Source: Patescibacteria group bacterium
GTDB taxonomy: Bacteria; Patescibacteriota; Patescibacteriia; 2-02-FULL-49-11
Assembly: GCA_041645165.1 (NCBI GenBank)
Contig: JBAZQN010000003.1
Location: 28,198 to 92,197 of the forward strand
Length of the DNA: 64,000 nucleotides
Direction: 5' to 3'
This document shows, piece by piece, positions 195 to 50,406 of the stretch; the stretch's first letter is position 1; each line of letters begins with the position of its first letter. The translations under genes were made by a program, and so were the position numbers. The notes under the pieces are model-generated. The model was not told the origin of the DNA. It saw only the letters and a list, made by a program, of their open reading frames with translations, and did not search any database.

Positions 195-1067
195 TCAATT
201 TGGGATTTTGAGTTTTGGGTATTGGTGATTATTTGTTACTTGTTTCTTGGTTATTTCGTTCAATGTCATCTTCATAACTTTAACAGGCGCATCACAACCA
301 GTAAATAATGTAAATGATAATATTGCCGTTTCTAAAAGCATTTCCGTACCAGGAATAACGAAACAACCTGCCTCTCTTGCCAATTTAGTCAAAGGCGTGC
401 TTTTGGCTGAATATACAATATCATACACCACTAATCCTTTCCGCAATAATTCCTTGCGTACGGGCGATCCTTGAACGCCATGCGGTAGGCCTATTGAGGT
501 CGCATTCACCAGAATATCGGTGGCAGCAATGAATGACGATAAATCATCAAGCGATCCCGCCGCATGCGCGCCAAATTCGCGGGCAAGCGCTTGAGCTTTA
601 TCTGCGGTGCGATTGAGAATAGACACGTAAGCATCAGCCTGCAAAAGCGCATAAACGATCGCCCGCGCAGCCCCTCCCGCGCCAAGCACGACTATGTGTT
701 CTCCTTTCACCTCGCCGATCGCGTGACGAAGCGTCGACATAAATCCCGGCGCATCCGTATTGTATCCCTTAAGCCTTCCTTCCTCGTTCACAATCGTATT
801 CACGGCGCCAATTGAGCGCGCATGATCATCAAGCGCGTCAAGAAAGGGAATCACGGTTTGCTTGTGCGGCACGGTTACATTGAGCCCCCGCACCCCGAGG
901 CTCCGCATGCCTTTGACTGCGGCTTCCACATCCTTCACCGGAAACGCGGCATAGATAAAATCCAAACCTAGCGCCTCAAACGCCGCATTATGGATCACGG
1001 GTGAAAGTGAATGATCTACCGGATCTCCTATGATGCCGCAAACTTTAGTTTTCGCGGTTATGTGCAT
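195..1067 (-). CDS. aroE: shikimate dehydrogenase
   Basis: Translation MHITAKTKVCGIIGDPVDHSLSPVIHNAAFEALGLDFIYAAF matches the AroE N-terminal substrate-binding motif; start at internal Met assumed (ORF extends to 1115). Confidence 0.85.
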   Translation of the reverse strand: MHITAKTKVCGIIGDPVDHSLSPVIHNAAFEALGLDFIYAAFPVKDVEAAVKGMRSLGVRGLNVTVPHKQTVIPFLDALDDHARSIGAVNTIVNEEGRLKGYNTDAPGFMSTLRHAIGEVKGEHIVVLGAGGAARAIVYALLQADAYVSILNRTADKAQALAREFGAHAAGSLDDLSSFIAATDILVNATSIGLPHGVQGSPVRKELLRKGLVVYDIVYSAKSTPLTKLAREAGCFVIPGTEMLLETAILSFTLFTGCDAPVKVMKMTLNEITKKQVTNNHQYPKLKIPN

Positions 1068-1584
1068 ACGACTTATGCTTATCAAACAATATATTGATAT
1101 CCCGAATAATGGCATGCGGAGCCTTGCCGCTTACATCGACCACCGCATCAGCCGCAGCGCGATACTGGGCTTCCCGTTCCTTCCATGTGCGCAGCATATC
1201 CTCTTCAAATGTTTCCGCATTGGTTAAATACGGGCGCTCCCCTTTCTCTCCCTGAAGGCGCTCCATAAGGCGCTCAACCGGCGCGTATAATAAAACCAAG
1301 AAGCCATTGATTTTCAGCCGCGTAACGCTTTCGTTGTTCATCACCACCCCACCGCCAGTCGCGATAACCGCCTTCTCGTCTCCTGCGACTTGAACAATCA
1401 CCTCAGCTTCGTGCCGCCGAAACGCATCCCAGCCCTCTTCGTTCACAAAATCCTCCAAGGAAACGCCTATGCGCTTCTCTATCAAGCTATCAGTATCCAA
1501 AAATGCATAGCCTAAAATATCAGCCAAGAGCTTCCCCACAGTTGATTTCCCGCTTCCCCGCATGCCGATTAATACTATGTTCAT
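1045..1584 (-). CDS. aroK: shikimate kinase
   Basis: MNIVLIGMRGSGKSTVGKLLA Walker A P-loop and size (179 aa) typical of AroK. Confidence 0.85.
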   Translation of the reverse strand: MNIVLIGMRGSGKSTVGKLLADILGYAFLDTDSLIEKRIGVSLEDFVNEEGWDAFRRHEAEVIVQVAGDEKAVIATGGGVVMNNESVTRLKINGFLVLLYAPVERLMERLQGEKGERPYLTNAETFEEDMLRTWKEREAQYRAAADAVVDVSGKAPHAIIRDINILFDKHKSYAHNREN

Positions 1585-1592
1585 ATTCGCAT

Positions 1593-1684
1593 GTCATTCC
1601 CGCGAAGGAGGGAATCTAGACAAAATAAACAAAAAACGATTATTTATTTTTAATTTCTGGATCCCCGATTAAATCGGGGATGAC
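1593..1684. repeat. family-1 TIR-bounded palindromic element (MITE/RPE-like), copy a
   Basis: gtcattcccgcgaagg(a/c)gggaat palindrome + AT-rich aaacaaa..tttgttt core + ggatccccgat..atcggggatgac palindrome; termini gtcattccc/gggatgac are inverted repeats. Same architecture at 9731, 11228, 12929, 48090. Confidence 0.6.
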
Positions 1685-1720
1685 AATGATGCGTGTTTCC
1701 CCAACGGGAAACCCGAATGA

Positions 1721-2980
1721 CTAGGCGTGTTTGCCAATGAGCATCCCGAGCGCTTCCCAAAACCCCGGATACGATTTGCTCACCACTTCCGCGTCCTGTA
1801 TCACCGTCTCCCCATCTGCCGCAAGCCCGGCAACCGCAAATGCCATTGCCATCCTATGGTCGCCGTGCGGATCAATCACTGCGCCTTTCAACTTTCCTCC
1901 GTGTATTTTTAACGAATCACCGTTCACCTCCGCGCGTATGCCCATCTTGGCAAGTTCTTCCGCAGGCGCGGCAAGGCGATCGCTCTCCTTCCCGCGCAGA
2001 TGGCCAATGTGGGTGATCACGCTCATACCCGGCGCAACCGCGGCAAGCACCGCAAGGGTAGGCACGAGATCAGGAACGTCGCAGCCGTCCACAGAAAATG
2101 GTTTTACTGATTTTGCGCCGCGCACCACCACTGCATTACGCTCATACTTTACTTCACATCCTACGCTGCGCAGAATGTCCAGTACTTTCCTATCCCCTTG
2201 CACAGATTCAGGCGCAAGTCCCAAAACCTTGACTTCGCCGCGAGTGACTGCGGCTGCGGCAAACCAATACTGTGCCGAAGAATAATCCCCTTCTATGGCA
2301 TACCTCCGTGCACGATACGATTGCCCCGGCTCAACCGTGAATTGATTGCCTTTCTGTTCTACCGCCACGCCAAGCTCTTTCAAAAGCGCGATCGTCAAAT
2401 CAATATACGGCCGTGAGTATATCGGCTCTTCCACTGCAATAGTCATTCCTTGCGGTAAGAAAGGTGCGATCATGAGCAGCGCAGATACAAATTGCGAACT
2501 GACATTTCCCGGCAGCCTCACCTTGCCGCCTTGCAATGCGCCTCCCCGTACCGTGATCCTCTTCGGCTCTTGGGTCACTTCTGCCCCCAACGTTTGAAGC
2601 GCATCATACAGTGGCTGCAAGGGGCGCTCTAACAATCGCACACCGCCGGTAATGATTGTTTCGCCTGGCGCCAGCGCTGCTAACGCGAGCGCAAATCGCA
2701 AGGTGGTGCCGGAAAGGCCGCATTCGAGGGGCCTTGAAGGAATACATAATGTCCCACCTGTGCCTTGCACTACCAGCTTTAATTCTTCCTGCTTTATTGA
2801 CGCGCCGAAACCCCTGCACGCGTCCATAGTTGCTTCCGTGTCATCCGCGTACAATATATTAGTTAACACAGATTCTCCTTTTGCGAGCGTTGCGAGCACT
2901 ATTGCGCGGTGCGTAATGCTCTTGGAGGGAGGCGTGACCACGACTCCTTCTATCTTTCCTGGAATTACAGTGACTTGCAT
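1721..2980 (-). CDS. aroA: 3-phosphoshikimate 1-carboxyvinyltransferase (EPSP synthase)
   Basis: KSITHRAIVLATLAKG...CGLSGTTLRFALALAAL motifs of class II EPSPS; start at MQVTVIPGK assumed (ORF to 3013). Confidence 0.88.
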   Translation of the reverse strand: MQVTVIPGKIEGVVVTPPSKSITHRAIVLATLAKGESVLTNILYADDTEATMDACRGFGASIKQEELKLVVQGTGGTLCIPSRPLECGLSGTTLRFALALAALAPGETIITGGVRLLERPLQPLYDALQTLGAEVTQEPKRITVRGGALQGGKVRLPGNVSSQFVSALLMIAPFLPQGMTIAVEEPIYSRPYIDLTIALLKELGVAVEQKGNQFTVEPGQSYRARRYAIEGDYSSAQYWFAAAAVTRGEVKVLGLAPESVQGDRKVLDILRSVGCEVKYERNAVVVRGAKSVKPFSVDGCDVPDLVPTLAVLAAVAPGMSVITHIGHLRGKESDRLAAPAEELAKMGIRAEVNGDSLKIHGGKLKGAVIDPHGDHRMAMAFAVAGLAADGETVIQDAEVVSKSYPGFWEALGMLIGKHA

Positions 2981-3087
2981 AATAAGCTTTATATTAGCGA
3001 GGATTGCTCTCACACAAACCCTCCGCAGACTCCGCCGGCATGGTGTCCGACGTAACGTCGGACCGGCGGAGGCGAGGCGGAGTGCGG

Positions 3088-3582
3088 TCAGCCGCTGGGC
3101 TGACCGACACGTGTTTGTGCTGAGGCAAGCCTCGCGACCAGATTCTCTAACCCTACCACGTAACTCTGCTCTTTTAACCCCATGACCCTTTCCGCCGCAA
3201 TATCGGCAATCACGGAAATCCTCCGGAACGGCTCCCGGTGCTCAATGTTAGACAAATGCACCTCCACGAGCGGAAGACCGGCGTCAACAAGCGCGTCCCT
3301 CAAGGCATAGCTGTAATGGGTGAGCGCCCCGGGATTGATGAGAATTCCATGCGCACCTCCCGCCTGTGCTTGAATAAAATCAATGAGCGCTCCTTCATGG
3401 TTTGACTGGAAAAACACGAGTTCTATCACCTCATGCCCCTCGCTTAATCTCCCTGCCTTCGCGCGCAACATATCCTCAATCGCACCCAACGTGAGCGAAC
3501 CGTACTGTACGGGGTCGCGTCTCCCCAGCATATTTAAATTTGGCCCGTTGATTACTAAAATACGCATAAGTTCATTGTTCAT
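3088..3582 (-). CDS. aroQ: 3-dehydroquinate dehydratase type II
   Basis: MRILVINGPNLNMLGRRDP...HLSNIEHREPFRR canonical type II DHQase motifs; 164 aa (start may be the Met at ~3567). Confidence 0.9.
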   Translation of the reverse strand: MNNELMRILVINGPNLNMLGRRDPVQYGSLTLGAIEDMLRAKAGRLSEGHEVIELVFFQSNHEGALIDFIQAQAGGAHGILINPGALTHYSYALRDALVDAGLPLVEVHLSNIEHREPFRRISVIADIAAERVMGLKEQSYVVGLENLVARLASAQTRVGQPSG

Positions 3583-3610
3583 TATTTGTAGCGGACTTGA
3601 ACCCAGAGGC

Positions 3611-3687
3611 GAAGGAATACCAATTTGTCGAGGATTTAGGCGCGAGGGTCGCTAGATCGCGTCCGCAGAAAAATTGTGTATTCCTGA
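3611..3687. repeat. family-2 TIR-bounded element, copy A
   Basis: gaaggaataccaattt(g/t)tcgaggatttaggcg...cgcgtccgcagaaaaattgtgtattcctga; imperfect ~17-bp terminal inverted repeats (aggaataccaattttt / aaaattgtgtattcct). Copies also at 5601-5676 and 50407-50504. Confidence 0.6.
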
Positions 3688-3717
3688 CCAAGAAACAACC
3701 TGGGTGAGCAAATACCA

Positions 3718-4821
3718 TTATTCACTGTTGAACATCCCTCGCAATGCTTCATGTACAATCTTACGCGGCACCTTGACCCCCGCCCTCGCCTTCCCAATCT
3801 TCTCCAACAGCACCCACCTTACGCTGCCACCTTGCGCCTTTTTATCATGCTGAAGAATATTTATCAGTCTTGCGATGTTCGTACGCGCGGGCAATCTCGT
3901 GGGTAGATTATAATGCGCCAATAACGATTCTACACGCGCGCAATCCTGCGTATTGAAACCTAATAATTCATTGCTTATCCTTACCGCCGCAACCATGCCG
4001 ATGGCGATTGCTTTGCCGTGCGGGAGTAAAAAATTGCTCATACTCTCCAGTGCGTGTCCCACGGTATGCCCGAAATTTAATAGTACCCTCTCGCCTTTTC
4101 GGTCGTTCGGGTCCCGCGCAACCGCCGCCGCCTTCGCCCGTACGCAAAATCCCACCACTTCGTCCCAGGGCATGCGATTGAAGGCACACTCCTCCAATCG
4201 CGCCGTGAATGTGCGGCTGCCTATCAATCCGTATTTAATTACTTCCGCCATGCCGTTAATAAGCTCATCTTGAGGGAGCGTCCTTAAAAACGTGGTGTCG
4301 CATACCACTGCCTTCGGCTGGTGAAACGTGCCAATCACATTTTTTATGCCCCGAAAGTCAACGCCGGTTTTGCCGCCAATCCCGCTGTCCACTTGTGCTA
4401 AAAGCGTTGTTGGCACCTCAATATAATCTATGCCTCGCAAATAAACGGACGCCACAAAACCCGTGAGGTCGCCTACCACGCCGCCGCCCAGCGCAACGAG
4501 GATGCCGTAACGATCAACTTTTTTCTGCTGCAGTATGCGCAAGCATCGCTCGGCAATGCGCAGTTCTTTCGAACGTTCTCCCGGCCTCAGCACAATGGTA
4601 TGCACGGGCACGCGCCCTTCGCGCAAGGTTCTCAAAACCCTTCCGTGCAGGCGCGCAACCGTGCGATCGGTAATGAGAACCACAGAGGTACGGGCATTGC
4701 CCCGTGCGAACTGAGGCAAAACGGCAAGCGCCCGATTTCCCGCGATGAGCGCACACGTGTTTTTCGCTGTTACGCGATAATGTATACGGATCATACCCCG
4801 TATATCAATATCCAACGCCAA
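3718..4821 (-). CDS. aroB: 3-dehydroquinate synthase
   Basis: GGGVVGDLTGFVASVYLRGIDYIEVPTTLLAQVDSGIGGKTGVDF NAD/metal-binding motifs of DHQS. Confidence 0.9.
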   Translation of the reverse strand: MALDIDIRGMIRIHYRVTAKNTCALIAGNRALAVLPQFARGNARTSVVLITDRTVARLHGRVLRTLREGRVPVHTIVLRPGERSKELRIAERCLRILQQKKVDRYGILVALGGGVVGDLTGFVASVYLRGIDYIEVPTTLLAQVDSGIGGKTGVDFRGIKNVIGTFHQPKAVVCDTTFLRTLPQDELINGMAEVIKYGLIGSRTFTARLEECAFNRMPWDEVVGFCVRAKAAAVARDPNDRKGERVLLNFGHTVGHALESMSNFLLPHGKAIAIGMVAAVRISNELLGFNTQDCARVESLLAHYNLPTRLPARTNIARLINILQHDKKAQGGSVRWVLLEKIGKARAGVKVPRKIVHEALRGMFNSE

Positions 4822-5029
4822 ACGTGGTTGGCATTGAAGTAAGCTTTAACATGAAAGCGACCTTGGTGTATTGAATCATAGTAAAATTTGTAGATAACGT
4901 TTGGCGATCAGTGAGGGAGGCTATGTAAAAATCTGCAATACGGTCAATCCTCATCCAGTAGTACTCCATCTATATTCTGCTTAAAGATTCCCGCCTCCCT
5001 CTTGGATGTTGTATTTCGGGGCATATGGT

Positions 5030-5317
5030 TCAGCGCTTTTGTGTCTGGCGCGATGATGCAATGATAATACCCATAAGCGTACGCACCTTTGACGCCGGGA
5101 GGCCCAGGGACCTGCCAAACTTCACGGCGCATGCGATTACCCGTTGTTCCCTTTCCCTGTCTTTTAAAGAAAGAGACTGGTCTAGTTTTAGTTTGCCGAT
5201 TTCACGCGCAACCTTCAAGCGCCTGGACCACAATCGCAATAAGGCGCGGTCAAGAGCGTCAATCTGTTTCCTTAAATGAGTGAGTGATTTAGAGTTCATA
5301 GGCTGCTCCTCGCTCAT
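5030..5317 (-). CDS. chorismate mutase (AroQ class)
   Basis: LRKQIDALDRALLRLWSRRLKVAREIGKLK matches CM type 2 helical motif; ~90 aa; immediately downstream of pheA. Confidence 0.7.
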   Translation of the reverse strand: MSEEQPMNSKSLTHLRKQIDALDRALLRLWSRRLKVAREIGKLKLDQSLSLKDREREQRVIACAVKFGRSLGLPASKVRTLMGIIIASSRQTQKR

Positions 5318-6310
5318 ACGTCCCCAACACCGTGAGGGTAACCGCTTCGTGCCTCAAGGCAGAGAGCGCCCGCGTGAGCGCTTCAGGCGAGAAGGTGTGT
5401 TCAAAATCCACATAGAACAAATATTCCCACGGCTTGCCGAGCAAAGGGCGCGATTCGACTTTGGTAAGATTCATGCCCCTGCCTGCGCACTGCACGAGGA
5501 AACGTGAGAGGCTCCCCGCGACGTGCGGAAGCGTGAGCAGGAGCGATACTTTATTTCCTTTCACCGCGGATAGTAAGTACTCACCGGCTTCAACGCGATG
5601 CGAAGGAATGCCAATTTTTCGAGGATTTAGGCGTTCAAGCTGCTTGGTCGCGTCCGCAGAAAAATTGTGCATTCTGAAGCGGGATGACTTTGGATGAGCA
5701 GTTATCGCAGATATCGGCTTTTTTGCAGGTTTTATAATAGCGCCGAAGCGGGTATAATTCTCGCGATCGGTCTCAATATGGTCGGCAACTACCGACAAGC
5801 CGTACAATGACGCCGCCACCCTGCTCGCGATTGCCGCCTCATCCTGGCGCCTACGGAGCGCCACCTCCCGCGCCGCGCCCGCGGTATCGCGGAATGATAT
5901 AACTTCTATCCAGGGATGGCGCTTAAGAAATTCCTCGCATTGGTCAAGCGCTTGAGGATGCGAGTAGACGCGCCGGATTTGGCGGATTCTTTTCGCGCCG
6001 CCCGCGTGCGCAGAATTTGCAAGCAGGTTATGGGATATGCGCAAAAATATTTCTCCGTCCAAGACAAGCGAGTGGCGTGCAAGCAAATCATAAATGCGAT
6101 GGATGGTGCCGGCGACCGAATTCTCCAAAGGCACGATACCCTGCAGAGCCTTGCCTTTTGCCACTGCCTTGAAAACCTCGTCAAATGAGGGACAAGGTAT
6201 CATCGCCGCGTGTATCCCAAAATATTTCTGTGCCGCGATTTCGCTGTACGCGCCATGTTCTCCTTGGAAAGCGATTTTATTCCGTTTAGGTAATGAATTT
6301 TTTGTCATAA
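5289..6310 (-). CDS. pheA: prephenate dehydratase with C-terminal ACT domain
   Basis: NKIAFQGEHGAYSEIAAQKYFG PDT N-terminus and VSLLLTLPHVAGSLSRFLVQCAGRGMNLTKVESRP ACT motif; start at MTKNSLPKRNKIAF assumed (ORF open to 6476). Linker contains in-frame family-2 repeat. Confidence 0.85.
5601..5676. repeat. family-2 TIR-bounded element, copy B, inside pheA coding sequence (in frame)
   Basis: gaaggaatgccaatttttcgaggatttaggcg...cgcgtccgcagaaaaattgtgcattctga; translated on minus strand as [34 protein letters not shown] within PheA linker. Confidence 0.65.
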
Positions 6311-6480
6311 TTTCTTTCCTACCTTTCTCTCTTCTTAGAGCGAGTGTTGGCTGTAACGAAAAGCGTCTCGGAGGTTTTGCGGGCATGGGTCCCGCGAAGC
6401 GGGAGAGCAAAACCGAGAGCCGAGCGGTAATTTCCTCGCTGGGGAAATTGACCGCGTCTTTTCGTGGCGGCCACACTCGC

Positions 6481-7401
6481 TTACGTCGCCACCGTTCTTC
6501 CTATCGCGCCCGCAATGGTATTTATTTCTCGCATCAGCTGGTTAAGCGCCTCAATGGATATCGCTTGCTCTGCGTCTGAAATGGATTTATCCGGATCTAT
6601 GTGGCACTCGATAAGCAGCCCGTCTGCCCCCGCGGCAATGGCCGCTCTACTCATCGCGGGCACCAAATCGCGCCTGCCAGTACCGTGTGAAGGGTCCACG
6701 ATGATGGGCAAGTGGGTTTCATTTTGCAAATAAGGCACCGCATTCAGGTCAAGCGTAAACCGCAGCTCAGTGACATGCGTGCGGATGCCGCGTTCGCAGA
6801 GCATCACATTTGCATTGCCTCCGGTGAGAATATATTCTGCGGCGAGCAAAAATTCCTTGTAGGTGGAATGCATGCCGCGCTTTAAGAGCACGGGATGTTT
6901 TGTGCGCCCGACCTCTCGCAAAAGTGTATAATTCTGCATGTTCCGCGCGCCGATTTGGAGTATGTCCGCATATTCCACAATAAGATCCACATCCCTGGGG
7001 TCCATCACTTCCGTGATGGAGCGCAATCCAGTAGAACGCGCCGCTTTCTGGAGAAGCTGGAGCCCTCTCTTCCCCAACCCTTGGAAATCATACGGGCCGG
7101 TGCGGGGCTTAAATGCCCCACCGCGCAGCACCGTGCCGCCCGCCTCTTTTACCGCTTTCGCAATCAGCGTAATCTGCTCTTCGTTTTCCACCGAACACGG
7201 CCCTGCCATTATCACCACCTGCGGCCCTCCCACCAGCAGCCCTTGCACGTCAATCACTGTCTTCTCATCTCCGGAAGTATGCGCAAGCCGGTATGGTTTG
7301 AGAGGAGACGACTCTGCAGGCAATATTCCGTTGTCACTCTTAGGTGATTCTAACACTGTTTTCACTCTCTTAATGACTTTTTCTTTCATGATAGTTGGCA
7401 T
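6481..7401 (-). CDS. 3-deoxy-7-phosphoheptulonate (DAHP) synthase, class I-beta / KDO8PS-like
   Basis: [14 protein letters not shown]...[17 protein letters not shown]...[20 protein letters not shown] typical of Bacillus/Thermotoga-type DAHP synthase; 306 aa. Confidence 0.85.
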
Positions 7402-7647
7402 ATGTGTGGCGTATAAAGGCGTAATAATGGCGTGAATTGGCTTCTATAAAACATTAAACTCCCCCGTGTTTGGGAGAGTCATACTATCGCGAGGCTTGAA
7501 CTATCTTTATTTATTCATATACGACAAATCTCCCAAACGGTTAGTCGGGCTAAAGAAAAACCAAAAATAATTGTTGGAGAATTGTGCGCTTTGCATAATT
7601 AAAAATTTATACTCTACCAAAACAGATAAAAGCTCCACTTTCTCTTT

Positions 7648-8031
7648 TTATTTAGCATTTTTATCCTTTTCTTCGGAGGACGTCTGCATACCAAGCCTAT
7701 CTCTTTCAAAATCAGAAACTGCTTTGAGCGCTTCATCTGCGCGCTGTTTAAGTTTATCGTACTCTTCATTGAGTGCTCCTGCTTCCTCCTGACCAGCCCC
7801 AACCAGCTTATTCAGTCTCTGCCGTAAGAGCGCCATGTACTCATAGTTATGCGACAAACCCTGCCTCTTTGTCCTCTCCCAAAATTCTGTCACTGGTGCA
7901 TCTTTCGATAGTCCTTCTTTTCTCACTTGATCCGTTTCTTCATGCATGGATTTATTTTCCTCTGCGACTTGCCTAGCATCATCATATACTTCTGCGACTT
8001 TCTCTGGATCCCAATTTTCTTTTTTCCACAT
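7648..8031 (-). CDS. hypothetical charged helical protein
   Basis: 127-aa ORF, highly charged (E/K/R rich), no recognisable motif. Confidence 0.45.
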   Translation of the reverse strand: MWKKENWDPEKVAEVYDDARQVAEENKSMHEETDQVRKEGLSKDAPVTEFWERTKRQGLSHNYEYMALLRQRLNKLVGAGQEEAGALNEEYDKLKQRADEALKAVSDFERDRLGMQTSSEEKDKNAK

Positions 8032-8046
8032 AGGTGCAAAATTTAT

Positions 8047-8169
8047 TCACGACCGCTGATCTCCGGACGCGTCTTTCTTCTCCTTATAGAAGAGTGTCGG
8101 CCATGAAATCGCCACAAGCCCTGCCAGGATGATGGCGAGTATGATGATAATGTGTGCGTAGGGATTCAT
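8047..8169 (-). CDS. possible small single-TM peptide
   Basis: ATG..TGA ORF MNPYAHIIIILAIILAGLVAISWPTLFYKEKKDASGDQRS (40 aa), hydrophobic core; not in provided track (below size cut-off). Confidence 0.25.
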   Translation of the reverse strand: MNPYAHIIIILAIILAGLVAISWPTLFYKEKKDASGDQRS

Positions 8170-8224
8170 ACACTTTTATTAAACATCTTCACGAAACAAT
8201 ATTACCACACGCCTTATAACCATG

Positions 8225-8596
8225 TCAAATCGGGCGGACGGAAAGGTCGGGAATCCTTCGAAAATCGCGCACATTCCTCGTCACGAGACTCGTGCCAGTG
8301 AAGAGCGCAGTGGCAGCAATCGTGCTGTCCGCGAGTGAGAGGCGATAGGTGCGCCGGATAAATCCAGTGATGCGTGCAATGCGCGAGTCGAGCGAAATCA
8401 CCGCGAGCGTGCTCAATAACCTTTCGATCCGATTTTCTTCCTCGATACTCAAATCCGGAAATCCGAAAAGTTCCGCCTCGGTGAGCGCCGACACATACAC
8501 GGTGATCGGCTCGTTGAGCAGTCCGCTCAAGATTGCGGCCGCATGAGGGTCGTCCTTGAGGTAATAGATGATCGCGTTGGTGTCGAGCGTGTACAC
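8225..8596 (-). CDS. vapC: PIN-domain toxin (VapC-like)
   Basis: YTLDTNAIIYYLKDDP...SLADSTIAATALFTGTSLVTRNVRDF: PIN acidic residues (D..E..D..N/D) pattern; start likely GTG ~8596 just after upstream antitoxin stop (track ORF extends to 8638). Confidence 0.7.
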   Translation of the reverse strand: MYTLDTNAIIYYLKDDPHAAAILSGLLNEPITVYVSALTEAELFGFPDLSIEEENRIERLLSTLAVISLDSRIARITGFIRRTYRLSLADSTIAATALFTGTSLVTRNVRDFRRIPDLSVRPI

Positions 8597-8610
8597 AAAC
8601 AGAATGTGCG

Positions 8611-8814
8611 CTACGCCTCCGCTGACGTCCGCTCCCACTCACGACGCATCTTCCGCAAGGTGAGGATGGGATCGGGTTTCCGGCGCTTCCACATCCCGCG
8701 TGCCTGTTCCCAGACGCGTGTACGGTCATTGCCGCGCAGGAGTAAGCGAAGATTCGCTTCCGCGTCACCTTTTGTACGTTCTTTTATTGGAGTCGAAATG
8801 ACAGAATATGACAT
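8611..8814 (-). CDS. putative antitoxin partner of VapC
   Basis: 67-aa ORF ending 14 bp before the PIN gene start, basic C-terminus (WKRRKPDPILTLRKMRREWE); classic TA gene arrangement. Confidence 0.5.
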   Translation of the reverse strand: MSYSVISTPIKERTKGDAEANLRLLLRGNDRTRVWEQARGMWKRRKPDPILTLRKMRREWERTSAEA

Positions 8815-8907
8815 AAAACGCCTTTTATAACCCTTACATCAATATAACTATACCCCATTCTCAAGCGTCCATCAAGTGTGTGGGGGTACTGTGTGCGGGG
8901 TACTACG

Positions 8908-9735
8908 TCAATTTATCCCTTCGCCTGCGTCCACCAACGTCCTCAAATATTTCTTTACCGCATCAATCCCTTGCCCCTGCGGCACTTTATTAAACACATC
9001 CAGCACCGCGCTGCCGACGATGGCGACATCAGCCCCCGCCTCTTTGAGTGTCTTGATATGCTCATGTGTTGAAACGCCAAATCCCACCGCGATGGACACA
9101 TCCTTATGCGCCCGAATTCTTTGAAGATGGTGCGCAAGCTCCTTATGGAGCGACGCGCGCGCGCCGGTCGTTCCTTTCTGCCCGATGAAATAGAGAAACT
9201 GGTTTGGCTTATCCAGTACTTTCTCAACTCGCTCGTCCGTGCTCACGGTGGAAAGAAACCGCATCGCTACTAAACCAGAACGCGCTGCGTGCTCCAAAAA
9301 ATGATCATGCGCTTCTTCATCAATCGGAATATCAGGAACGATGAGCCCGCTCACCCCCACCTCTGCCGCATCTCTACAAAATTGCTCGACGCCGTAATGA
9401 AAGACAAGATTAAAATACGTCATAAATAGGAGAGGTATTTTACAGTGTGCCCCAACCAAATTCTGCGCCGCGGCAAACGCATCCTTCACCTTGAATCCTC
9501 TCTTAAGCGAGACTTCATTTGCCTTCATTATCGTCGGCCCGTCAGCCAAGGGATCTGAAAAAGGAATCTGCAGCTCGATAAAATCAACGCCCGCCCCTGC
9601 CATCGCATGCACAAGCCCAATGGAATCCTGCAGCGACGGATAGCCCAAGACAATATGGGCCATGATCCCTAATCTTTTCTCCTCTTTTATTTTATTGAGT
9701 CGTGTAATAATCTTGTTCATATTCACGTGTGTCAT
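8908..9735 (-). CDS. trpA: tryptophan synthase alpha chain
   Basis: GIMAHIVLGYPSLQDSIGLVHAMAGAGVDFIELQIPFSDPLADGPTIMKA canonical TrpA motifs (start may be the Met at 9720). Confidence 0.9.
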   Translation of the reverse strand: MTHVNMNKIITRLNKIKEEKRLGIMAHIVLGYPSLQDSIGLVHAMAGAGVDFIELQIPFSDPLADGPTIMKANEVSLKRGFKVKDAFAAAQNLVGAHCKIPLLFMTYFNLVFHYGVEQFCRDAAEVGVSGLIVPDIPIDEEAHDHFLEHAARSGLVAMRFLSTVSTDERVEKVLDKPNQFLYFIGQKGTTGARASLHKELAHHLQRIRAHKDVSIAVGFGVSTHEHIKTLKEAGADVAIVGSAVLDVFNKVPQGQGIDAVKKYLRTLVDAGEGIN

Positions 9736-9833
9736 TCCCGCGAAGGCGGGAATCTAGAAAAAAAACAAACATAAAAATCGATCGTTTTCTTTTTGTTTTT
9801 TAGTTCTGGATCCCGTATCAAGTACGGGATGAC
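9731..9833. repeat. family-1 TIR-bounded palindromic element, copy b
   Basis: gtcattcccgcgaaggcgggaatctag...aaacaaacataaaaatcgatcgttttctttttgtttttt...ctggatcccgtatcaagtacgggatgac; right arm contains trpB last codons and TGA stop. Confidence 0.65.
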
Positions 9834-11119
9834 GGTAATGTTGACCTTCTCTTTAAGTATTCCTTCCAAATCTGCCCGCCGAATATATCCCCGAGAATAA
9901 ACAAATCTTTATCACCGCGTCCCGACATATTCACGACGATGATTTTTTCTTTGGATAAGGTGGGTGCAAGTTTCACGACATGCGCGAATGCGTGTGCCGA
10001 TTCAAGCGCGGCAAAGAGCCCCTCCATGCGCGCCAGAGCTTGAAATGCACTGAGCGCTTCCTCGTCGGTCGCCGACACATACTGCACTCTTCCCTTCTGG
10101 TAAAGCAGCCCATGCTCCGGCCCGATCCCCGCATAATCAAGGCCCGCAGAAATGCTATGCGTGTTTTGTATTTGCCCGTCTTCGTTCTGCAGAAAATAAG
10201 ACTTATATCCTTCAACAACCCCAAGCTTGGGATCGCGGGCTAGGCGCGCCGCGTGCTTCCCTGTTGATGTCACTCCCTCGCCCCCTGCCTCCACGCCAAT
10301 AAGACGCACGGAAGGCTCTTCCAAAAAGGTGTTGAAAATGCCTATGGCATTACTGCCGCCGCCCACGCACGCGATCACATAATCAGGGAGTTCTCTGCCT
10401 GTTTGTGCCTTTAACTGCTCCCGCACCTCAAGCCCCACAATATTCTGAAAATCGCGCACCAGAGAAGGGTAAGGGTGCGGGCCTAAAGCGCTTCCCAACA
10501 GGTAATAGCTCTCATCCACGTTCGCGATCCAGTCTTGGATGGCAGCCGTGACTGCGTCTTTTAAGCGTTTAGTGCCATGGGCAACCGGCACTACCTCAGC
10601 GCCCAATTGCTCCATCCAGAATACGTTCGGCCGCTGCCGTTCATAATCCACCTCGCCCATGTAGACGGTGCATGCAAATCCAAACTTCGCCGCGACCGTT
10701 GCGGCCGCCAGCCCATGCTGTCCCGCGCCTGTTTCTGCGATTAGGCGTTTTTTGCCCATGCGGCGAGCAAGGAGCGCCTGCCCCAGACAATGGTTCATCT
10801 TGTGCGCGCCGGTATGGTTTAATCCTTCATTTTTAATAAAAATATTCGCGCCGCCTAAGTGCGCGCTCAAATTTCGCGCAGAGGTAAGCGGCGTGGGGCG
10901 GCCGGAATAATTCTGATAGAGATCCATAAGCTCGCTCAAGAAAGTAGGATCATTTTTCGCGGTTGCATAGGCGCGCTCAAGCGCGAGTAACGCCGGCATC
11001 AAATTTTCCGGCACATACCTACCACCCAGCTCGCCAAAATGCCCCTGCGCGTCTGCATCGTACGGTGTGGAGAAAAAAATGTTCTTCACCCCGTTAGAAA
11101 TTTGTTTTGCATCTTGCAT
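9818..11119 (-). CDS. trpB: tryptophan synthase beta chain
   Basis: HFGELGGRYVPENLMPAL...HTGAHKMNHCLGQALLA...GGGSNAIGIF PLP-fold TrpB motifs; 433 aa. Confidence 0.9.
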   Translation of the reverse strand: MQDAKQISNGVKNIFFSTPYDADAQGHFGELGGRYVPENLMPALLALERAYATAKNDPTFLSELMDLYQNYSGRPTPLTSARNLSAHLGGANIFIKNEGLNHTGAHKMNHCLGQALLARRMGKKRLIAETGAGQHGLAAATVAAKFGFACTVYMGEVDYERQRPNVFWMEQLGAEVVPVAHGTKRLKDAVTAAIQDWIANVDESYYLLGSALGPHPYPSLVRDFQNIVGLEVREQLKAQTGRELPDYVIACVGGGSNAIGIFNTFLEEPSVRLIGVEAGGEGVTSTGKHAARLARDPKLGVVEGYKSYFLQNEDGQIQNTHSISAGLDYAGIGPEHGLLYQKGRVQYVSATDEEALSAFQALARMEGLFAALESAHAFAHVVKLAPTLSKEKIIVVNMSGRGDKDLFILGDIFGGQIWKEYLKRRSTLPSSRT

Positions 11120-11227
11120 AATATTTCATCCCTGTTAGAAGTCTTTCTTGTGATTTCTAACGGGGTTAATAAACAATATGACCATTTAGCCATGTATACT
11201 CGATTGCTATTCAAATTTCGATTGCAT

Positions 11228-11392
11228 CGTCGTTCCCGCCCCGTATCACGGTACGGGGTAAACCATGGCCTCGCGCAGGCGGGGCTCTTGCGGGAATCCA
11301 GACGCCGTCCTCGACCGAGATCGGGAAAAACCAAAAGAAAATCGATTTTTGCTTGTTTTTTATGTCTGGATTCCAAATCAGGTCTGGAATGA
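11228..11392. repeat. family-1 element, copy c (with nested extra hairpin module)
   Basis: gtcgttcccgcc[ccgtatcacggtacggggtaaaccatggcctcgcgcaggcgggg]ctcttgcgggaatc ... ctggattccaaatcaggtctggaatgac; same nested module as copy d. Confidence 0.6.
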
Positions 11393-11437
11393 CAATCGAA
11401 ATTGGGTTGGCAATTTATTATAACCATTACGCTATTT

Positions 11438-12073
11438 CTATTTTGCGTTTTTAATAAACAATCGTACCTTTCGCATATCTTTCACCCCCGGTTTAACTTC
11501 AACTCCGCCCGAGGCATCAATAATTCGCGATCGCGTAAACTTGATGCCATCATGGATATTTTCTGGTGTCAACCCGCCGGAGAGCACCACCTCATATCCC
11601 GCTTCAACAAGCTCACGCGCGAAGTTCCAGTCAGCACGCTTTCCGCTCCCGCCTGCCCCGTGCATTGGATTTTTTGCATCAACCAGCAGCACCTCAACGA
11701 CACTCGCGTAGTGCAGGTAATTTTGCCGCGTCACCGCTTTCCATATTATTACCCCTCGTTTTCGCAGCCGATTAACGTAGGCCGTTGTTTCATTCCCATG
11801 CAATTGCCAAATACTGATTCCCGATTCCTCGATTAACCTGCACAACCGTTCAAACGGCAGATTCACCACCACCCCCACCGTACGGGCAGAAAATTTTCTG
11901 CCCCTACACCTATTATTTACCGCCTCCTGTATCTCCCGAGCTTTCTCTCCCGTAACGCTTCTTGGACTCTTAGGAAATTCTATAACACAGCCTACAAAGT
12001 CCGCGCCTTGCCGCGCGATTTCCCGCGCCTGCGCGGGCAGTGTCACACCGCAAATTTTTACCTTTACGTTCAT
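11438..12073 (-). CDS. trpF: phosphoribosylanthranilate isomerase
   Basis: MNVKVKICGVT...position in trp operon between trpC and trpB; TIM-barrel PRAI signature KICGxT. Confidence 0.85.
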   Translation of the reverse strand: MNVKVKICGVTLPAQAREIARQGADFVGCVIEFPKSPRSVTGEKAREIQEAVNNRCRGRKFSARTVGVVVNLPFERLCRLIEESGISIWQLHGNETTAYVNRLRKRGVIIWKAVTRQNYLHYASVVEVLLVDAKNPMHGAGGSGKRADWNFARELVEAGYEVVLSGGLTPENIHDGIKFTRSRIIDASGGVEVKPGVKDMRKVRLFIKNAK

Positions 12074-12098
12074 ATCCGAAATATAAAACTTATTAGGC

Positions 12099-12920
12099 TT
12101 ATTCTGCCAACGATAACGCTCTGACCATATTTACAGGATCGCCCGATTTCATCAGCGCTTCCCCCACCAATACAGCGCGTACACCAGCATGGTGCCACTT
12201 CCGTACTATTTCAGCTGATACAACGCCGGACTCGCCGATCAGTAAGGGCAAAAAATCTTTTGCCCCTACGGCACGTGTCGCCGTTCTTGCCAATCTCACC
12301 ACCCTATCCACATCCACCGTCAAATCAACCAGACTCCGCGCGTTTATCCCGATAATTTCTGCGCCAATCTTCATGGCACGTTCAAAATCCTCCTCTTGTT
12401 CCACTTCCACCAATACCTGAAGCCCAAGCGCACGGCTTAATTGAAAGAGCCTTTTTAGTTCATCGTCTTCAAGCCATCTGGTAATAAGGAGCACGAGATC
12501 TGCGCCTGCCGCCTTGGATTCATACACCTGATACTCGCTGATGATGAAATCTTTGCGCAAAAATGGCATGGAGGGGAAACTCTCTTTCAGTTGCTTCAAT
12601 TCTTCCAATGAACCGTTAAAATAATTCGGCTCGGTAAGCACGGATATGGCGACTGCGCCGCCATCCACGTACGCCTGCACCTGCGCCAGATGGTCGCGGC
12701 CGCTGATCATGCCTGCGTTCGGGCTTGCGTGCTTGATCTCACCGATAACCGCGACAGGGCTCTGCCGCCTTACGATGCGTTCCTTTATGTCAACGAGGAG
12801 CAGTGTCCGCACGGCCGCTAGCCGCTTCAAATCCTCCAAAGGAACAGCCGCCTCTTCTTTCTGAACGCGTTCCTGAATGATTGGATAAATTTTTCCTAAA
12901 AATCCATTCAAATTTTTCAT
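12099..12920 (-). CDS. trpC: indole-3-glycerol phosphate synthase
   Basis: IGEIKHASPNAGMI...AISVLTEPNYFNGSLEELK...FLRKDFIISEYQV IGPS motifs; start at ATG 12918-12920 (track ORF begins TTG 12926). Confidence 0.9.
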   Translation of the reverse strand: MKNLNGFLGKIYPIIQERVQKEEAAVPLEDLKRLAAVRTLLLVDIKERIVRRQSPVAVIGEIKHASPNAGMISGRDHLAQVQAYVDGGAVAISVLTEPNYFNGSLEELKQLKESFPSMPFLRKDFIISEYQVYESKAAGADLVLLITRWLEDDELKRLFQLSRALGLQVLVEVEQEEDFERAMKIGAEIIGINARSLVDLTVDVDRVVRLARTATRAVGAKDFLPLLIGESGVVSAEIVRKWHHAGVRAVLVGEALMKSGDPVNMVRALSLAE

Positions 12921-12928
12921 ACTCAACT

Positions 12929-13074
12929 GTCATTCCCGCCCCGTATGCCGCTACGGGGTAAACCATGGCCTCGCGAGGCGGGGCTCCGGCGGGAATCCAG
13001 ATAAATAACAAACATGAATTACCGATCGTTTTCTTTTTGTTTTATCTAGATCCCGTATCTCGGTACGGGATGAC
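12929..13074. repeat. family-1 element, copy d (with nested hairpin module)
   Basis: gtcattcccgcc[ccgtatgccgctacggggtaaaccatggcctcgcgaggcgggg]ctccggcgggaatccag...aacaaacatgaattaccgatcgttttctttttgtttt...gatcccgtatctcggtacgggatgac. Confidence 0.65.
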
Positions 13075-13099
13075 AACAGGACGTATTCGTGCCCGATAA

Positions 13100-14122
13100 T
13101 CAACTTTTCAACCTATTACTCACCTCAATAAACTTTTCCAACAACTTCGTCGCTTCCCCATTCGTCACTGCCTCTCTCGCTATTGCAATCCCTTCTCCAA
13201 CATCCTTCGCTTGCCCCGCCACATACAACGCCGCACCGCTGTTGAAAAGCACCGTATCAAGCCGCGCTCCTTTCTCTCCCGAGAGCACGGCACGGATAAT
13301 CGATGCATTCTCCTGTACATCACCACCTCTCAGGTCATTGTTCGTCGCGTGCGAAAAACCGTAATCCTGCGGATCTAAGACATACTTCTCGATAATTCCT
13401 CGCTTCACTTCATACGCGTCAGCAGTGGCCGTAGTGGTAAGCTCGTCGTGCCCATCCCCACTGCGCACTACCATTGCGTGTTCGCTGCCTAAAAGCCGTA
13501 GAGTTTGCGCAATTATCTGCATCTTCGCGGGATCGGCAATGCCGATAATTTGCCGCCGCGGCATCGCGGGATTCACGAGCGGCCCTAAGATATTGAACAG
13601 CGTGCGCACTCCAAGCTCTTTCCGCACTGGCCCCACCTTCGCAAACGCAGGGTGATACAGAGGCGCGAAGAGAAACACAATACCCGCTTCTTCTAAACAG
13701 CGGCTTGCCTGCGCGGGCGTGAGATTAATATTCACACCCAGCGCTTCCAGGACGTCCGCGCTCCCGCACGCGCTCGAGACCGCCCGGTTGCCGTGTTTTG
13801 CCACTTTCACTCCGCACGCCACGACGACCAGCGCGGTTGCCGTAGAAATGTTGAAAGTGCCTCTGCCATCGCCGCCAGTCCCGCACGTATCAAAAACTTC
13901 CGTGTGTGCGCCGGGTAAGGCTATTGCGTGGGTGCGGAGCGACCGCACAAAACCCACGATCTCCTCTGCAGTTTCGCCTTTTATGCGAAGTGCTACCAAC
14001 AATGCGGCAATCTGCGCAGGGGTATAGTCCCCTCCTATAATCGTTTCCATCACTAGCTCTGCCTCTGTTAAAGTAAAGCTCTCTCGATTGAGTATTTTGT
14101 TGAGTATTTCAGAGTATATCAT
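13100..14122 (-). CDS. trpD: anthranilate phosphoribosyltransferase
   Basis: AALLVALRIKGETAEEIVGFVRSLRTHA...DTCGTGGDGRGTFNISTATALVVVACGVKVAKHGNRAVSS TrpD signature. Confidence 0.9.
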   Translation of the reverse strand: MIYSEILNKILNRESFTLTEAELVMETIIGGDYTPAQIAALLVALRIKGETAEEIVGFVRSLRTHAIALPGAHTEVFDTCGTGGDGRGTFNISTATALVVVACGVKVAKHGNRAVSSACGSADVLEALGVNINLTPAQASRCLEEAGIVFLFAPLYHPAFAKVGPVRKELGVRTLFNILGPLVNPAMPRRQIIGIADPAKMQIIAQTLRLLGSEHAMVVRSGDGHDELTTTATADAYEVKRGIIEKYVLDPQDYGFSHATNNDLRGGDVQENASIIRAVLSGEKGARLDTVLFNSGAALYVAGQAKDVGEGIAIAREAVTNGEATKLLEKFIEVSNRLKS

Positions 14123-14697
14123 AGGCCTAAAAAATTCTTTATTAAATCCATACCCAATTCCGTCCTAATCGATTCGGGATGGAACTGAATACCCTCAATA
14201 GGAAATTGGCGATGCCGCACGCCCATGATCTGCCCGTCATCCTTTGCGAGGGCCGTAATCTCGAGGCATGCAGGGAGGCTTTCCCTCTCGCCCGCGAGAG
14301 AATGATAGCGCATGCCCTGCAAGGGACTGGCAAGACTCTTGAAAATACCTTTTCCTTCGTGCACGATAAGGCTCACTTTGCCGTGTTTGACGACTGGCGC
14401 GCGCACCACGCGCCCCCCAAACGCCGCAATAATCCCCTGATGCCCGAGACACACGCCCAACACCGGCGTCGTTTTTCCGCATTCAAGAATAACGTCTTTA
14501 CATACACCGAAGTATTGGGGGTCCGTAGGATCGCCCGGGCCCGGGGAAATGACGACATGGGTATACCCTCCTCCCCTCACGTCATCTAATGTGACTGCAT
14601 CATTCCTTTCTACCACAGGATTTCCTCCCAACATCCCCACATATTGGTAGAGGTTGTAGGTGAATGAATCGTAGTTGTCGATAATAAGTATTTTCAT
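14119..14697 (-). CDS. trpG: anthranilate synthase component II (glutamine amidotransferase)
   Basis: MKILIIDNYDSFTYNLYQYV...GVCLGHQGI class I GATase triad context; 4-nt overlap with trpD. Confidence 0.9.
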   Translation of the reverse strand: MKILIIDNYDSFTYNLYQYVGMLGGNPVVERNDAVTLDDVRGGGYTHVVISPGPGDPTDPQYFGVCKDVILECGKTTPVLGVCLGHQGIIAAFGGRVVRAPVVKHGKVSLIVHEGKGIFKSLASPLQGMRYHSLAGERESLPACLEITALAKDDGQIMGVRHRQFPIEGIQFHPESIRTELGMDLIKNFLGL

Positions 14698-14867
14698 AAT
14701 CTTTCTTCTTCCCTTCTCCTCCTAGTGGGCGGGGTTAATCTCAGAGTGAGGATTAGCCGTTGAAAAACCCTCCGCAGTCCCGCAGTGGCGGGACGAGGCG
14801 GAGTGCCCCGCCGCGCTGGAGGCGGGGACGCGTGTTTTTCCAACGGACAAGCCGAACGACTGTACGT

Positions 14868-16169
14868 TCACACTCGCGCACACGCTACCGCCTGTTGTAT
14901 TGCCCTCTGTTTATTCATAATCTCCTCATATTCCTTCTCGCACACCGAATCATACACAATCCCGCTTCCTGACCTGGTATATGCCTTGTTGCCTGAGACA
15001 AAGAGCGAACGGATCGCAATCGCAAACATCGCATCGCCATTCACGCTAAAATATCCGACAGACCCCCCGTACAAACCGCGCGGGCTCCTCTCCAATGCGG
15101 CGATTATTTTCATTGCCTCAATCTTGGGCGCGCCAGTGAGCGTGCCTGCGGGGGCGCACGCCGCCAGAACATCAAAACTGTCCAACCCTTTGCGCAGAGT
15201 CCCGCGTATTTCTGTCGATAAATGCTGCACATGGCTATAGCGCTTCACTGCCATGAGCCCTTCTACGCGCACGCTCCCGAACTCCGCCACCCTGCCGACG
15301 TCATTGCGCGCCAAATCCACGAGCATCATGTGTTCTGCCACTTCCTTTTCGTCGGATTTTAATTGCGCCGCAAGACGCTCATCCTCTTGCCTGTCTGCGC
15401 CGCGCTTTATGGTCCCGGCAAGCGTGCCAAAATGCTCAATTGCGTGCCCCTTGGTCCTGAATAACAATTCCGGCGATGCACCCAGCGCATACCTTTCCCG
15501 GAACTTCATACAATACATGTGCGGCGAAGGATTAATTTCGCGCAGGTTCCCGTACACCGCGACTGGCGATCCTGCACACTCATACTCAAACCCCACAGAA
15601 AATACAATCTGAAATGCATCGCCCCTCCCCACATGCTCTTTGATTGATGCAAACGCCTCTTGGTATTGCGGCAGCGACATATCCGAGGTGTGCGATTCCA
15701 CCTCAAAACGGGGTGTCTCACCATGTTTTTTTAGCATCTCCTTGAACTGCGCTCTCCTGTCCTTTTCAAGCGTGAAGTACCGTATTGATTGCGTGTGCTT
15801 ATCAAAAATAAAACCATCAAGGTAGAGTCCGAACTCAAATTGGGGAAAATACGGCTGCTTTTTCCCCGAGAAAGCCGGTTCAAAAAGCGCCGTGCCGTCA
15901 TATGAGACATATCCCACCAGACCGCCATGATAATGCGGCGGCAGCCCCTCGACATGGGGAAGCAGACCCTTTAACGCGGCATAATCAGTAGTGGCATCAG
16001 AAACCACTGATTGCGGCTCCGCGCCAAGGTACGTGAAACGGGAAAACTCCGATTCCGCGCCAAGCGACTCAAGGATAAAAGCGTTTTCGCAGCGCTGTGC
16101 AAGCCTTTCAAATATCTCAAATGGCTTTAAATCGGTGCTAAATTCGAACTCTTGATATTGAAAACTCAT
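14868..16169 (-). CDS. trpE: anthranilate synthase component I
   Basis: 433-aa chorismate-binding enzyme (…GTLTGAPKIEAMKIIAALERSPRGLYGGSVGYFS…) at head of trp operon. Confidence 0.9.
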   Translation of the reverse strand: MSFQYQEFEFSTDLKPFEIFERLAQRCENAFILESLGAESEFSRFTYLGAEPQSVVSDATTDYAALKGLLPHVEGLPPHYHGGLVGYVSYDGTALFEPAFSGKKQPYFPQFEFGLYLDGFIFDKHTQSIRYFTLEKDRRAQFKEMLKKHGETPRFEVESHTSDMSLPQYQEAFASIKEHVGRGDAFQIVFSVGFEYECAGSPVAVYGNLREINPSPHMYCMKFRERYALGASPELLFRTKGHAIEHFGTLAGTIKRGADRQEDERLAAQLKSDEKEVAEHMMLVDLARNDVGRVAEFGSVRVEGLMAVKRYSHVQHLSTEIRGTLRKGLDSFDVLAACAPAGTLTGAPKIEAMKIIAALERSPRGLYGGSVGYFSVNGDAMFAIAIRSLFVSGNKAYTRSGSGIVYDSVCEKEYEEIMNKQRAIQQAVACARV

Positions 16170-16285
16170 AAGTATTCAATGGATACCACCCCTTATGTCC
16201 CCTCCTTACTAAGAGCCTGACCCGTGTTTATCACGGGGAGGGGGTAGGGAGGTCTCCTTAATTTAAAACCAATGGCGTACATAAC

Positions 16286-16313
16286 AAAAAACTGACCCCC
16301 TCTCGGGGATCAG
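16286..16313 (-). terminator. trp attenuator terminator hairpin + U-run
   Basis: Minus-strand gatccccgagagggggtcagttttttg; GC hairpin followed by T6, located between leader peptide and trpE. Confidence 0.6.
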
Positions 16314-29120: not shown

Positions 29121-29656
29121 AGGACTATATAAAACTGACCAAGAATATAGAAATTGACTAGGTAGAATAGCACTATGGCTAATCCCTCCATAACTACTCT
29201 TATATTCTCCCACTTTCTGTCTTGATTGACAATATGTTTGGTTATACACCAAGAGCCGCAGGAAACGACTTTTACGATTCCTCCGCTGCAATTTACTCTC
29301 TTTCAGGATGGATCATTGATATTTTTAACTTAAGGCCATGACGCGGCAGAGGAAGGCATCGCAGATAATCTCGAAAAAGAGACTCCCCACCAGGAAATGC
29401 GAGGAAGGTAAGGCTTACCATGCCGTCATAGCCTGGCTCCGGTGAAAATGAAATGGCGGGAGGCTGATCGGGAGGAAGCGTCTGCGCCGTACTGGGAATA
29501 AAAAACACCCTCCGAAAAGAGTGTTCTTGTTTGATTACCAACCTGCTGTGAGGTTTTTGAGACGGAAACGGGCCTGCCGCGCCGGAGTCCAGAATCTCTG
29601 GACGCAGGTGGGTCTCTTCCTCCAGAGGCGGACAAGCGAACCGCGCAATAATTTGA

Positions 29657-50358: not shown

Positions 50359-50406
50359 GCGTTGAAGAGAAAAAAATTCTGTAACTACTGACTTAGTCCT
50401 TATAGC

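Follow-up and report, generated by a model that had tools for sequence, protein, structure and literature searches.

The DNA analysed here, referred to as the window, is a stretch of 64,000 nt from contig JBAZQN010000003.1 (positions 28,198 to 92,197 of the forward strand) of a metagenome-assembled genome (MAG) of a Patescibacteria group bacterium (GCA_041645165.1). Positions 195–16300 of the window hold a complete-looking aromatic amino-acid cluster (aroE, aroK, aroA, aroQ, aroB, chorismate mutase, pheA, 3-deoxy-D-arabino-heptulosonate 7-phosphate (DAHP) synthase and trpA, B, F, C, D, G and E), which is unusual for bacteria of the Candidate Phyla Radiation (CPR), the genome being labelled Patescibacteria by NCBI. 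Its minus strand carries pheA (5289–6308; 339 aa from the ATG at 6308), assigned as prephenate dehydratase from the list of open reading frames (ORFs), Pfam, an NCBI match and PDB entry 2qmx, and this uninterrupted ORF encloses the middle one of three copies of a palindromic repeat. Taken as a whole, the locus is very probably best explained by a miniature inverted-repeat transposable element (MITE) of 133 bp, which sits in frame in the part of pheA that codes for the linker and is read through, adding 47 aa to the protein.

Extent of the insertion in pheA

The MITE copy inside pheA belongs to the short form of its family and spans 5573–5705, as delimited by an empty site in a related contig (L004), the terminal-repeat consensus and an nhmmer match (E=3.4e-37). 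It lies on the plus strand with respect to the family model, the gene reading its reverse complement. Contig L004 is syntenic with the window (pheA, chorismate mutase, aroB and aroQ, in that order) and encodes the nearest homologue of the window PheA, a protein of 289 aa (P0002) which is 92% identical over the aligned part and lacks exactly the 47 residues that form positions 199–245 of the window protein. At the DNA level, blastn joined window 6278–5710 to L004 495–1063 and window 5572–5029 to L004 1060–1603, leaving 141 extra bp in the window. The window site reads CCTTTCAC-CGCGGATA-(133 bp)-CGCAGATA-TCGGCTT, and the empty site of L004, with a single target copy, reads CCTTTCAC-GGCGGATA-ACGGCTT. 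The left copy of the target-site duplication (CGCGGATA, 5565–5572) thus matches the right copy (CGCAGATA, 5706–5713, also placed by the L004 comparison) at seven of eight positions, and the element together with its 8-bp duplication amounts to 133 + 8 = 141 bp (47 codons). Over 11.4 kb, including the insert, an ENA assembly contig (L005) shows 100% identity with the window.

The outer inverted ends of this copy are GTAAGTACTCAC / GATGAGCAGTTAT. The left terminal inverted repeat lies at 5573–5585 (GTAAGTACTCACC; family consensus GTAAyTGCTCACT) and the right one at 5693–5705 (GATGAGCAGTTAT; family consensus AGTGAGCArTTAC), both on the plus strand and both placed by the family alignment and terminus location. 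They enclose an inner hairpin core at 5600–5674 (plus strand; left arm 5600–5625, loop, right arm 5648–5674), recognised by the arm search, the fold and the family alignment. A preliminary description of this DNA had given the element a size of about 76–98 bp and a gain in linker length of about 35 aa, and had taken the inner hairpin arms for the terminal inverted repeats. These figures need correcting: the interval 5601–5676 named there is the inner hairpin core only, the true termini flank it at a distance of about 27 bp on either side, and the linker is lengthened by 47 aa.

Both conserved arms occur exactly three times in the window (3609–3634 with 3657–3683, 5600–5625 with 5648–5674, and 50405–50430 with 50474–50500), with no match in 100 shuffled sequences. 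The continuous ORF and these three occurrences confirm what the preliminary description had proposed, namely a repeat in frame inside pheA, whose peptide had been read correctly. The three copies align over more than 60 bp of DNA, as had been expected there, with a mean column identity of 78%. In the protein alignment, the inserted segment is missing from all 13 aligned PheA relatives, the 92%-identical orthologue among them, and the gap maps onto the repeat.

Only one of the six reading frames of the pheA copy is open. A word-indexed protein search with the 47-aa insert peptide was empty, no candidate sharing three 5-residue words with it, and an exhaustive comparison with 1.84 billion representative proteins returned no real homologue, its two marginal matches both being unrelated tandem-repeat proteins; a native protein domain is thus excluded for the insert peptide. 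In that set, PheA and DnaX presumably appear as cluster members without the insert, which means that in-frame copies are not countable there. Rfam matched only a tRNA-Asn over the whole window at the gathering threshold and nothing at E≤1 in 5450–5850, and a known ribozyme, intron or small RNA at the pheA copy was rejected on this ground.

The window PheA is identical to a protein described by NCBI as a prephenate dehydratase domain protein of a Patescibacteria group bacterium MAG (P0001). The catalytic prephenate dehydratase (PDT) domain covers residues 12–193 in Pfam (E=3.7e-60), and the regulatory ACT domain residues 255–319, the latter being a weak match (21.8 bits against a cut-off of 27 bits). 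The structure 2qmx was matched with E=1.3e-52 by two query stretches (12–210 and 251–331), which adjoin each other at residue 198 of the 2qmx chain. All residues invariant across 78 PheA sequences are kept, including T186, R187, F188, E285, S286, R287 and P288, and the protein thus has the two domains and the conserved residues of a prephenate dehydratase, with an ACT match that is weak in Pfam. An AlphaFold model built with the 78-sequence alignment reached a mean predicted local distance difference test (pLDDT) score of 86 and a predicted template modelling (pTM) score of 0.81. Ten-residue block means of pLDDT were 93–98 over nearly all of PDT and ACT, with a single dip to 68 at residues 61–70, and 37–55 in the insert region (about residues 201–250), modelled as a low-confidence loop with a short helix at 218–226.

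Compared with the L004 orthologue, the ratio of nonsynonymous to synonymous substitution rates (dN/dS) of pheA is 0.11 over 289 codons. The 93 codons 3' of the insert differ at 11 nucleotides, 10 of which are third codon positions, and encode identical amino acids. Judged by its sequence, pheA looks functional, and we infer that the protein is probably made and active.

The repeat family in Patescibacteria

An exact 22-mer from the right arm retrieved three copies in Candidatus Uhrbacteria RIFCSPLOWO2_02_FULL_49_11, and a scan of metagenome contigs with an exact right-arm 18-mer gave 39 loci, a subset of which are true copies as recognised by the nhmmer profile. Many copies lie on nine large contigs of metagenome Ga0265296 and others in Ga0156063 and Ga0209343, which gives at least four source genomes or metagenomes: the window MAG, Ga0265296, the Uhrbacteria genome (equal to Ga0156063) and Ga0209343. 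Between the window and the Ga0265296 contigs only the elements match, with 84–95% identity, so that the window genome is distinct from that of Ga0265296. The family alignment contained 21 distinct flank-inclusive sequences, three of which represent the same Uhrbacteria copy; the family as a whole counts at least 18 distinct copies across several Patescibacteria metagenome genomes.

Full-length copies measure 133–157 bp and fall into a short form (133–136 bp) and a long form (149–157 bp), the long form having an additional nested hairpin, CTTATGCCTGT...ACAGGCATAAG. Overall the element is an imperfect palindrome, bounded by the 13-bp outer terminal inverted repeats GTAAyTGCTCACT / AGTGAGCArTTAC. 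These repeats are perfect or near-perfect in four copies (L026, L029, L028 and L038), and in two (L029 and L023) the variant positions are paired between the left and the right end. The consensus fold contains an inner 16-bp stem, GGAATrCCAATTTTTC / GAAAAATTGTGyATTCC, in which one pair covaries, being A-U in 10 copies and G-C in 6. From genome to genome, the two inner arms (26 and 29 nt) hardly vary, in contrast to the loop and the termini. This conservation of the inner arms is in part a matter of ascertainment, the metagenome scan pattern being an exact 18-mer of the right arm.

Flanking 8-mers agreed at seven or more of eight positions in 5 of the 11 copies with defined ends, compared with none of 110 cross-copy controls. 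A duplication of 8 bp is present in six cases, and the copy in dnaX, with 14 bp, is the exception. A sister element of 89 nt in an intergenic position (L039 9669–9757, Ga0265296_1000389) differs in its interior but shares the perfect ends (GTAACTGCTCACT / AGTGAGCAGTTAC) and is flanked by a duplication of 8 bp (GCATGAGk), which suggests that the outer ends are what the transposition machinery recognises. Orthologous empty sites were found for three insertions: in pheA, between aroB and aroQ, and in dnaX. By its size without a transposase, its inverted ends, target duplications, dispersed copies and empty sites, the element is a MITE, and the reading as a MITE given in the preliminary description has gained strength from the outer ends, the 8-bp duplications and the empty orthologous sites.

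Most copies lie in very short spacers between co-directional genes, often less than 20 nt from a gene end, and their orientation relative to the flanking genes shows no bias (about 7 to 5). The frame used in pheA is open in 6 of the 21 family sequences; one subfamily has a TAG in the loop, and no frame is open in most copies. A family built for translation, with one frame open in all copies, was accordingly rejected.

In-frame recurrence, proposed mechanism and alternative readings

Three of the about 18 distinct copies are genic, in pheA, in dnaX and in the gene of a pilin, each of them in frame, stop-free and between domains. The dnaX copy of metagenome Ga0265296 (L038 6148–6303, Ga0265296_1000387) has the same orientation and frame as that in pheA. 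The protein encoded there (P0121, 606 aa) matches Pfam DNA_pol3_delta2 with E=2.7e-41 and, weakly, gamma/tau domain III (sub-threshold) and DnaX_C, and the insert occupies the linker between domain III and the C-terminal domain. An orthologue (P0122, 550 aa, 92% identical) lacks exactly 56 aa and has a single HNEN, compared with an HNEN flanking the insert on either side in P0121. The copy is flanked by a perfect 14-bp duplication, ATTCTCGTTATGAG, and 154 + 14 = 168 bp again makes whole codons. In the gene of a type IV secretion system pilin (L019, PF18895), the element has the opposite orientation and stands between the signal peptide and the pilin domain; this case is read from the insert-bearing gene itself, and the orthologue comparison covers pheA and dnaX.

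The following course of events would account for these data. A non-autonomous DNA transposon of 133 bp, with 13-bp outer inverted ends (GTAAyTGCTCACT) enclosing a conserved 16-bp inner hairpin, would have inserted into the linker-coding part of pheA with duplication of 8 bp of the target. Since the resulting 141 bp are divisible by three and contain no stop in the pheA frame, the gene would have stayed open, and PheA would have gained 47 residues in the stretch that joins its catalytic PDT to its regulatory ACT domain. The insertion would persist because the extra segment is hosted by a flexible inter-domain linker, so that both domains can still fold. Insertions that break a gene would be lost, and in needed genes only the harmless ones, in frame, stop-free and at a tolerant position, would stay visible. 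The preliminary description had called the family active or tolerated within essential genes: tolerance is supported, indirectly, and activity is conjectural.

As to what moves the element, a single-ORF DDE transposase of the IS66 type, similar to those of ISBst12 and ISGka4, might act on it in trans. We give this lead roughly even chances; it is drawn by analogy from two features, the GTAA-type ends and the 8-bp duplications. The IS66 family is described as having 'GTAAGCG' ends and 8-bp repeats (PMC11946415), and for its member ISDge4, which belongs to the ISBst12 group with a single ORF, the end GTAACTGCTCAGCA and a repeat of 8 bp are given (PMC12898284). The family consensus end, GTAACTGCTCACT, begins with GTAA and is identical to the ISDge4 end over the first 11 nt of the latter. 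In an IS66-like ISGka4 copy on the Geobacillus plasmid pHTA426, the ends are GTAwCTATTCAGCCC, the duplication measures 8 bp (GACGAGTT) and the transposase matches PF03050 with E=1.9e-64. The elements of this group resemble the MITE in ends that begin GTAACT..TCA and in 8-bp target duplications, whereas they are about 1.6 kb long and encode a PF03050 transposase, for which the 133-bp element has no coding capacity.

Several observations weigh against a tolerated insertion of a selfish MITE. The inner hairpin arms are more conserved than the termini, an uncommon trait in a MITE that is purely selfish; in several copies no target duplication can be recognised; and the 14-bp duplication in dnaX breaks the 8-bp rule. 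A search for a full-length parent, in the form of GTAA-type end pairs 60–4000 bp apart, found only MITE-sized pairs in the window and in about 310 kb of related loci, and tblastn with the ISGka4 transposase found no IS66-like transposase in the same DNA. Both read-through and PheA function are deduced from sequence alone. Finally, the low dN/dS and the unchanged ACT domain are summed over both lineages and are also what one would see if the insertion were very recent and the gene now dead.

On one alternative reading, the repeat is in the first place a structured element with a function, such as an RNA hairpin or a site bound by protein, that serves mRNA stability, processing or operon regulation; the pheA copy would be a by-product. 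The nearly invariant inner arms next to a variable loop and termini, the covarying stem pair, the stable folds (z-scores from -2 to -7) and the placement of most copies in very short co-directional spacers, often within 20 nt of a gene end, all agree with such a role. The invariance of the right arm is, however, forced by the search pattern, and the covariation follows the subfamilies and may be inherited rather than selected. Moreover, the mixed orientation with respect to transcription (about 7 to 5) argues against a strand-specific RNA role, no Rfam family apart from the tRNA-Asn was matched over the whole window at the gathering threshold and none around the pheA copy at E≤1, and the target duplications and empty sites show that the copies arrived by transposition. 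We therefore regard a primarily functional repeat as improbable. A related idea is equally doubtful: the inner hairpin may be retained in several Patescibacteria species on account of a host function, for instance as an intercistronic RNA or protein-binding module in their very compact operons, or its translated form may be a reusable linker that alters allosteric coupling, such as that of PDT with ACT. If true, it would be a domesticated mobile structural module in CPR genomes.

The second alternative, which we hold to be a little less probable still, is that pheA is dead or dying, the insertion having inactivated the enzyme and the frame being open by chance, through a length that is a multiple of three and happens to contain no stop. 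From the single open frame out of six in this copy and from the 6 of 21 family sequences open in the pheA frame, it follows that translation is not what the element is built for, and amino-acid biosynthesis is commonly missing in CPR bacteria. On the other hand, all residues invariant in the 78 PheA sequences are kept, dN/dS is low, and the shikimate, Trp and Phe genes around pheA form an intact cluster. An ACT-coding part with 11 nucleotide and no amino-acid changes would be hard to explain if translation no longer went beyond the insert, except in the case of a very recent insertion; the copies of the target duplication have already diverged at one of eight positions, so that the insertion is probably not brand new. 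In addition, three genic copies out of three are in frame, stop-free and inter-domain, a pattern expected from selection and not from luck.

There is hardly any room for a native, lineage-specific PheA linker from which the intergenic repeats were copied, or for an assembly artefact: PDT-ACT linkers do vary in length and the window is a metagenome assembly, but the segment occurs in none of the 13 aligned relatives, bacterial PheA proteins among the 120 homologues listed measure 269–298 aa except for one of 340 aa and one of 450 aa whose extra length was not assessed, the insert peptide has no real homologue among the 1.84 billion representative proteins, the same DNA with inverted ends and duplications is found in unrelated contexts of other genomes, and the ENA contig is identical over 11.4 kb, insert included.

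An in-frame insertion of a tolerated MITE, as preferred here, is a known kind of event, here in a repeat family and in a bacterial group for which we found no account of it. Full-text literature searches found no description of MITEs in Patescibacteria or the CPR. The classic case, in which selfish DNA lengthens proteins without destroying them, is that of the Rickettsia palindromic elements (RPEs), to whose behaviour the preliminary description had likened the pheA copy. This likeness is strengthened by the two further in-frame copies in a related genome, that in dnaX with an empty site, and RPE-like behaviour is seen at the PheA linker, the DnaX linker and the junction of signal peptide and domain in the pilin. 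As far as the summary in PMC10969869 goes, RPEs are likewise palindromic repeats, of about 130–150 bp, found between genes and in frame within unrelated housekeeping genes, and both kinds of element add about 45–55 aa at positions compatible with the fold. According to that summary (of Ogata et al., 2000, 2002), a conserved peptide is encoded by every RPE; in contrast, the frame is open in 6 of 21 sequences of the present family, which further differs in its clear outer inverted ends and 8-bp target duplications. The genic fraction (3 of about 18) is also lower than that reported for RPEs. As RPE hosts are Alphaproteobacteria and the present element is patescibacterial, the two are likened by behaviour, and membership in the RPE families is not claimed.

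Other MITEs that lie in frame or extend ORFs include QMITE1/2 of Coxiella, intragenic ERIC, BOX and the Anabaena MITEs (PMC5896051, PMC10969869). They share with the present family a small size, non-autonomy, hairpin formation, a mostly intergenic location and occasional in-frame fusion to host ORFs. However, their fusions mostly concern hypothetical proteins or gene ends, whereas here the insertions are internal to pheA and dnaX, each with an orthologous empty site. The behaviour known from Rickettsia extends here to Patescibacteria (CPR), whose genomes are small and densely packed, and the case is a clean one: both genes combine an orthologous empty site with a visible target duplication, and the ends suggest a candidate transposase family open to testing. 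For practical work on CPR genomes, such insertions make proteins longer and can lead annotation, and analyses of domain linkers, astray. The two PheA proteins, one with the insert and one lacking it, offer a natural comparison for testing how far the PDT-ACT linker can be stretched.

Intergenic copies and other repeats of the window

Copy 1 of the MITE (3581–3715, plus strand, nhmmer) lies between aroB (stop codon 3718–3720) and aroQ (start 3567) and has a decayed left terminus. Its target duplication is CATTGTTC (3573–3580) / CATTATTC (3716–3723), the aroB stop codon falling within the right copy. The copy is absent from L004, where the aroB-aroQ gap is 3 bp. The longest aroQ ORF begins at an ATG (3582–3580) made by the decayed left end of copy 1 together with the target duplication; the start supported by the orthologue is 3567, and gene callers may thus over-extend aroQ by five codons. 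A tRNA-like motif near the end of this copy, GGTTCAAGTCC, was dropped as a coincidence, as ARAGORN and Rfam are blank there.

Copy 3 (50381–50529, plus strand) is of the long form, with 149 bp and a nested 27-nt hairpin at 50431–50457, and was identified by nhmmer, its termini and a fold z-score of -7.2. It lies 22 nt upstream of the start of the minus-strand ORF 49132–50358, and its flanks, matching at four of eight positions, hold no recognisable target duplication.

A third small hairpin repeat, GTCrTTCCCGCCCCGTA...ACGGGGTAAACC, adjoins this copy at about 50590–50640 in a similar form and is found at 11229–11275 and 12929–12975, in intergenic spacers of the trp region. A second palindromic family is represented at 1592–1685 and 9730–9834, with partial matches at 11365–11394 and 48113–48142. 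It consists of TGTCATTCCCGCGAAGGmGGGAATCTAGA, an AT-rich stretch of about 40 nt and then TCTGGATCCC-hairpin-GGGATGACr, and lies about 8–12 nt upstream of minus-strand start codons (that of aroK at 1584 and that of a gene starting near 9719). The spacer (6357–6474) that separates the DAHP synthase gene from the start codon of pheA has 77% identity to L004 3172–3292, which in L004 is downstream of aroQ and may be another mobile or repeated segment.

Two further repeats complete the picture. One, a direct repeat of 55 nt and 98% identical, occupies 29656–29710 and 48204–48258, the second copy abutting the 3' end of the only tRNA gene of the window, tRNA-Asn(gtt) (48252–48326, minus strand); the pair could mark, as attachment sites, where an element of about 18.5 kb has integrated. 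The other is an exact repeat of 45 nt (54133–54177 and 55449–55493) at or near the 5' ends of the adjacent minus-strand ORFs 52639–54177 and 54209–55522, which suggests a duplicated N-terminal coding segment.

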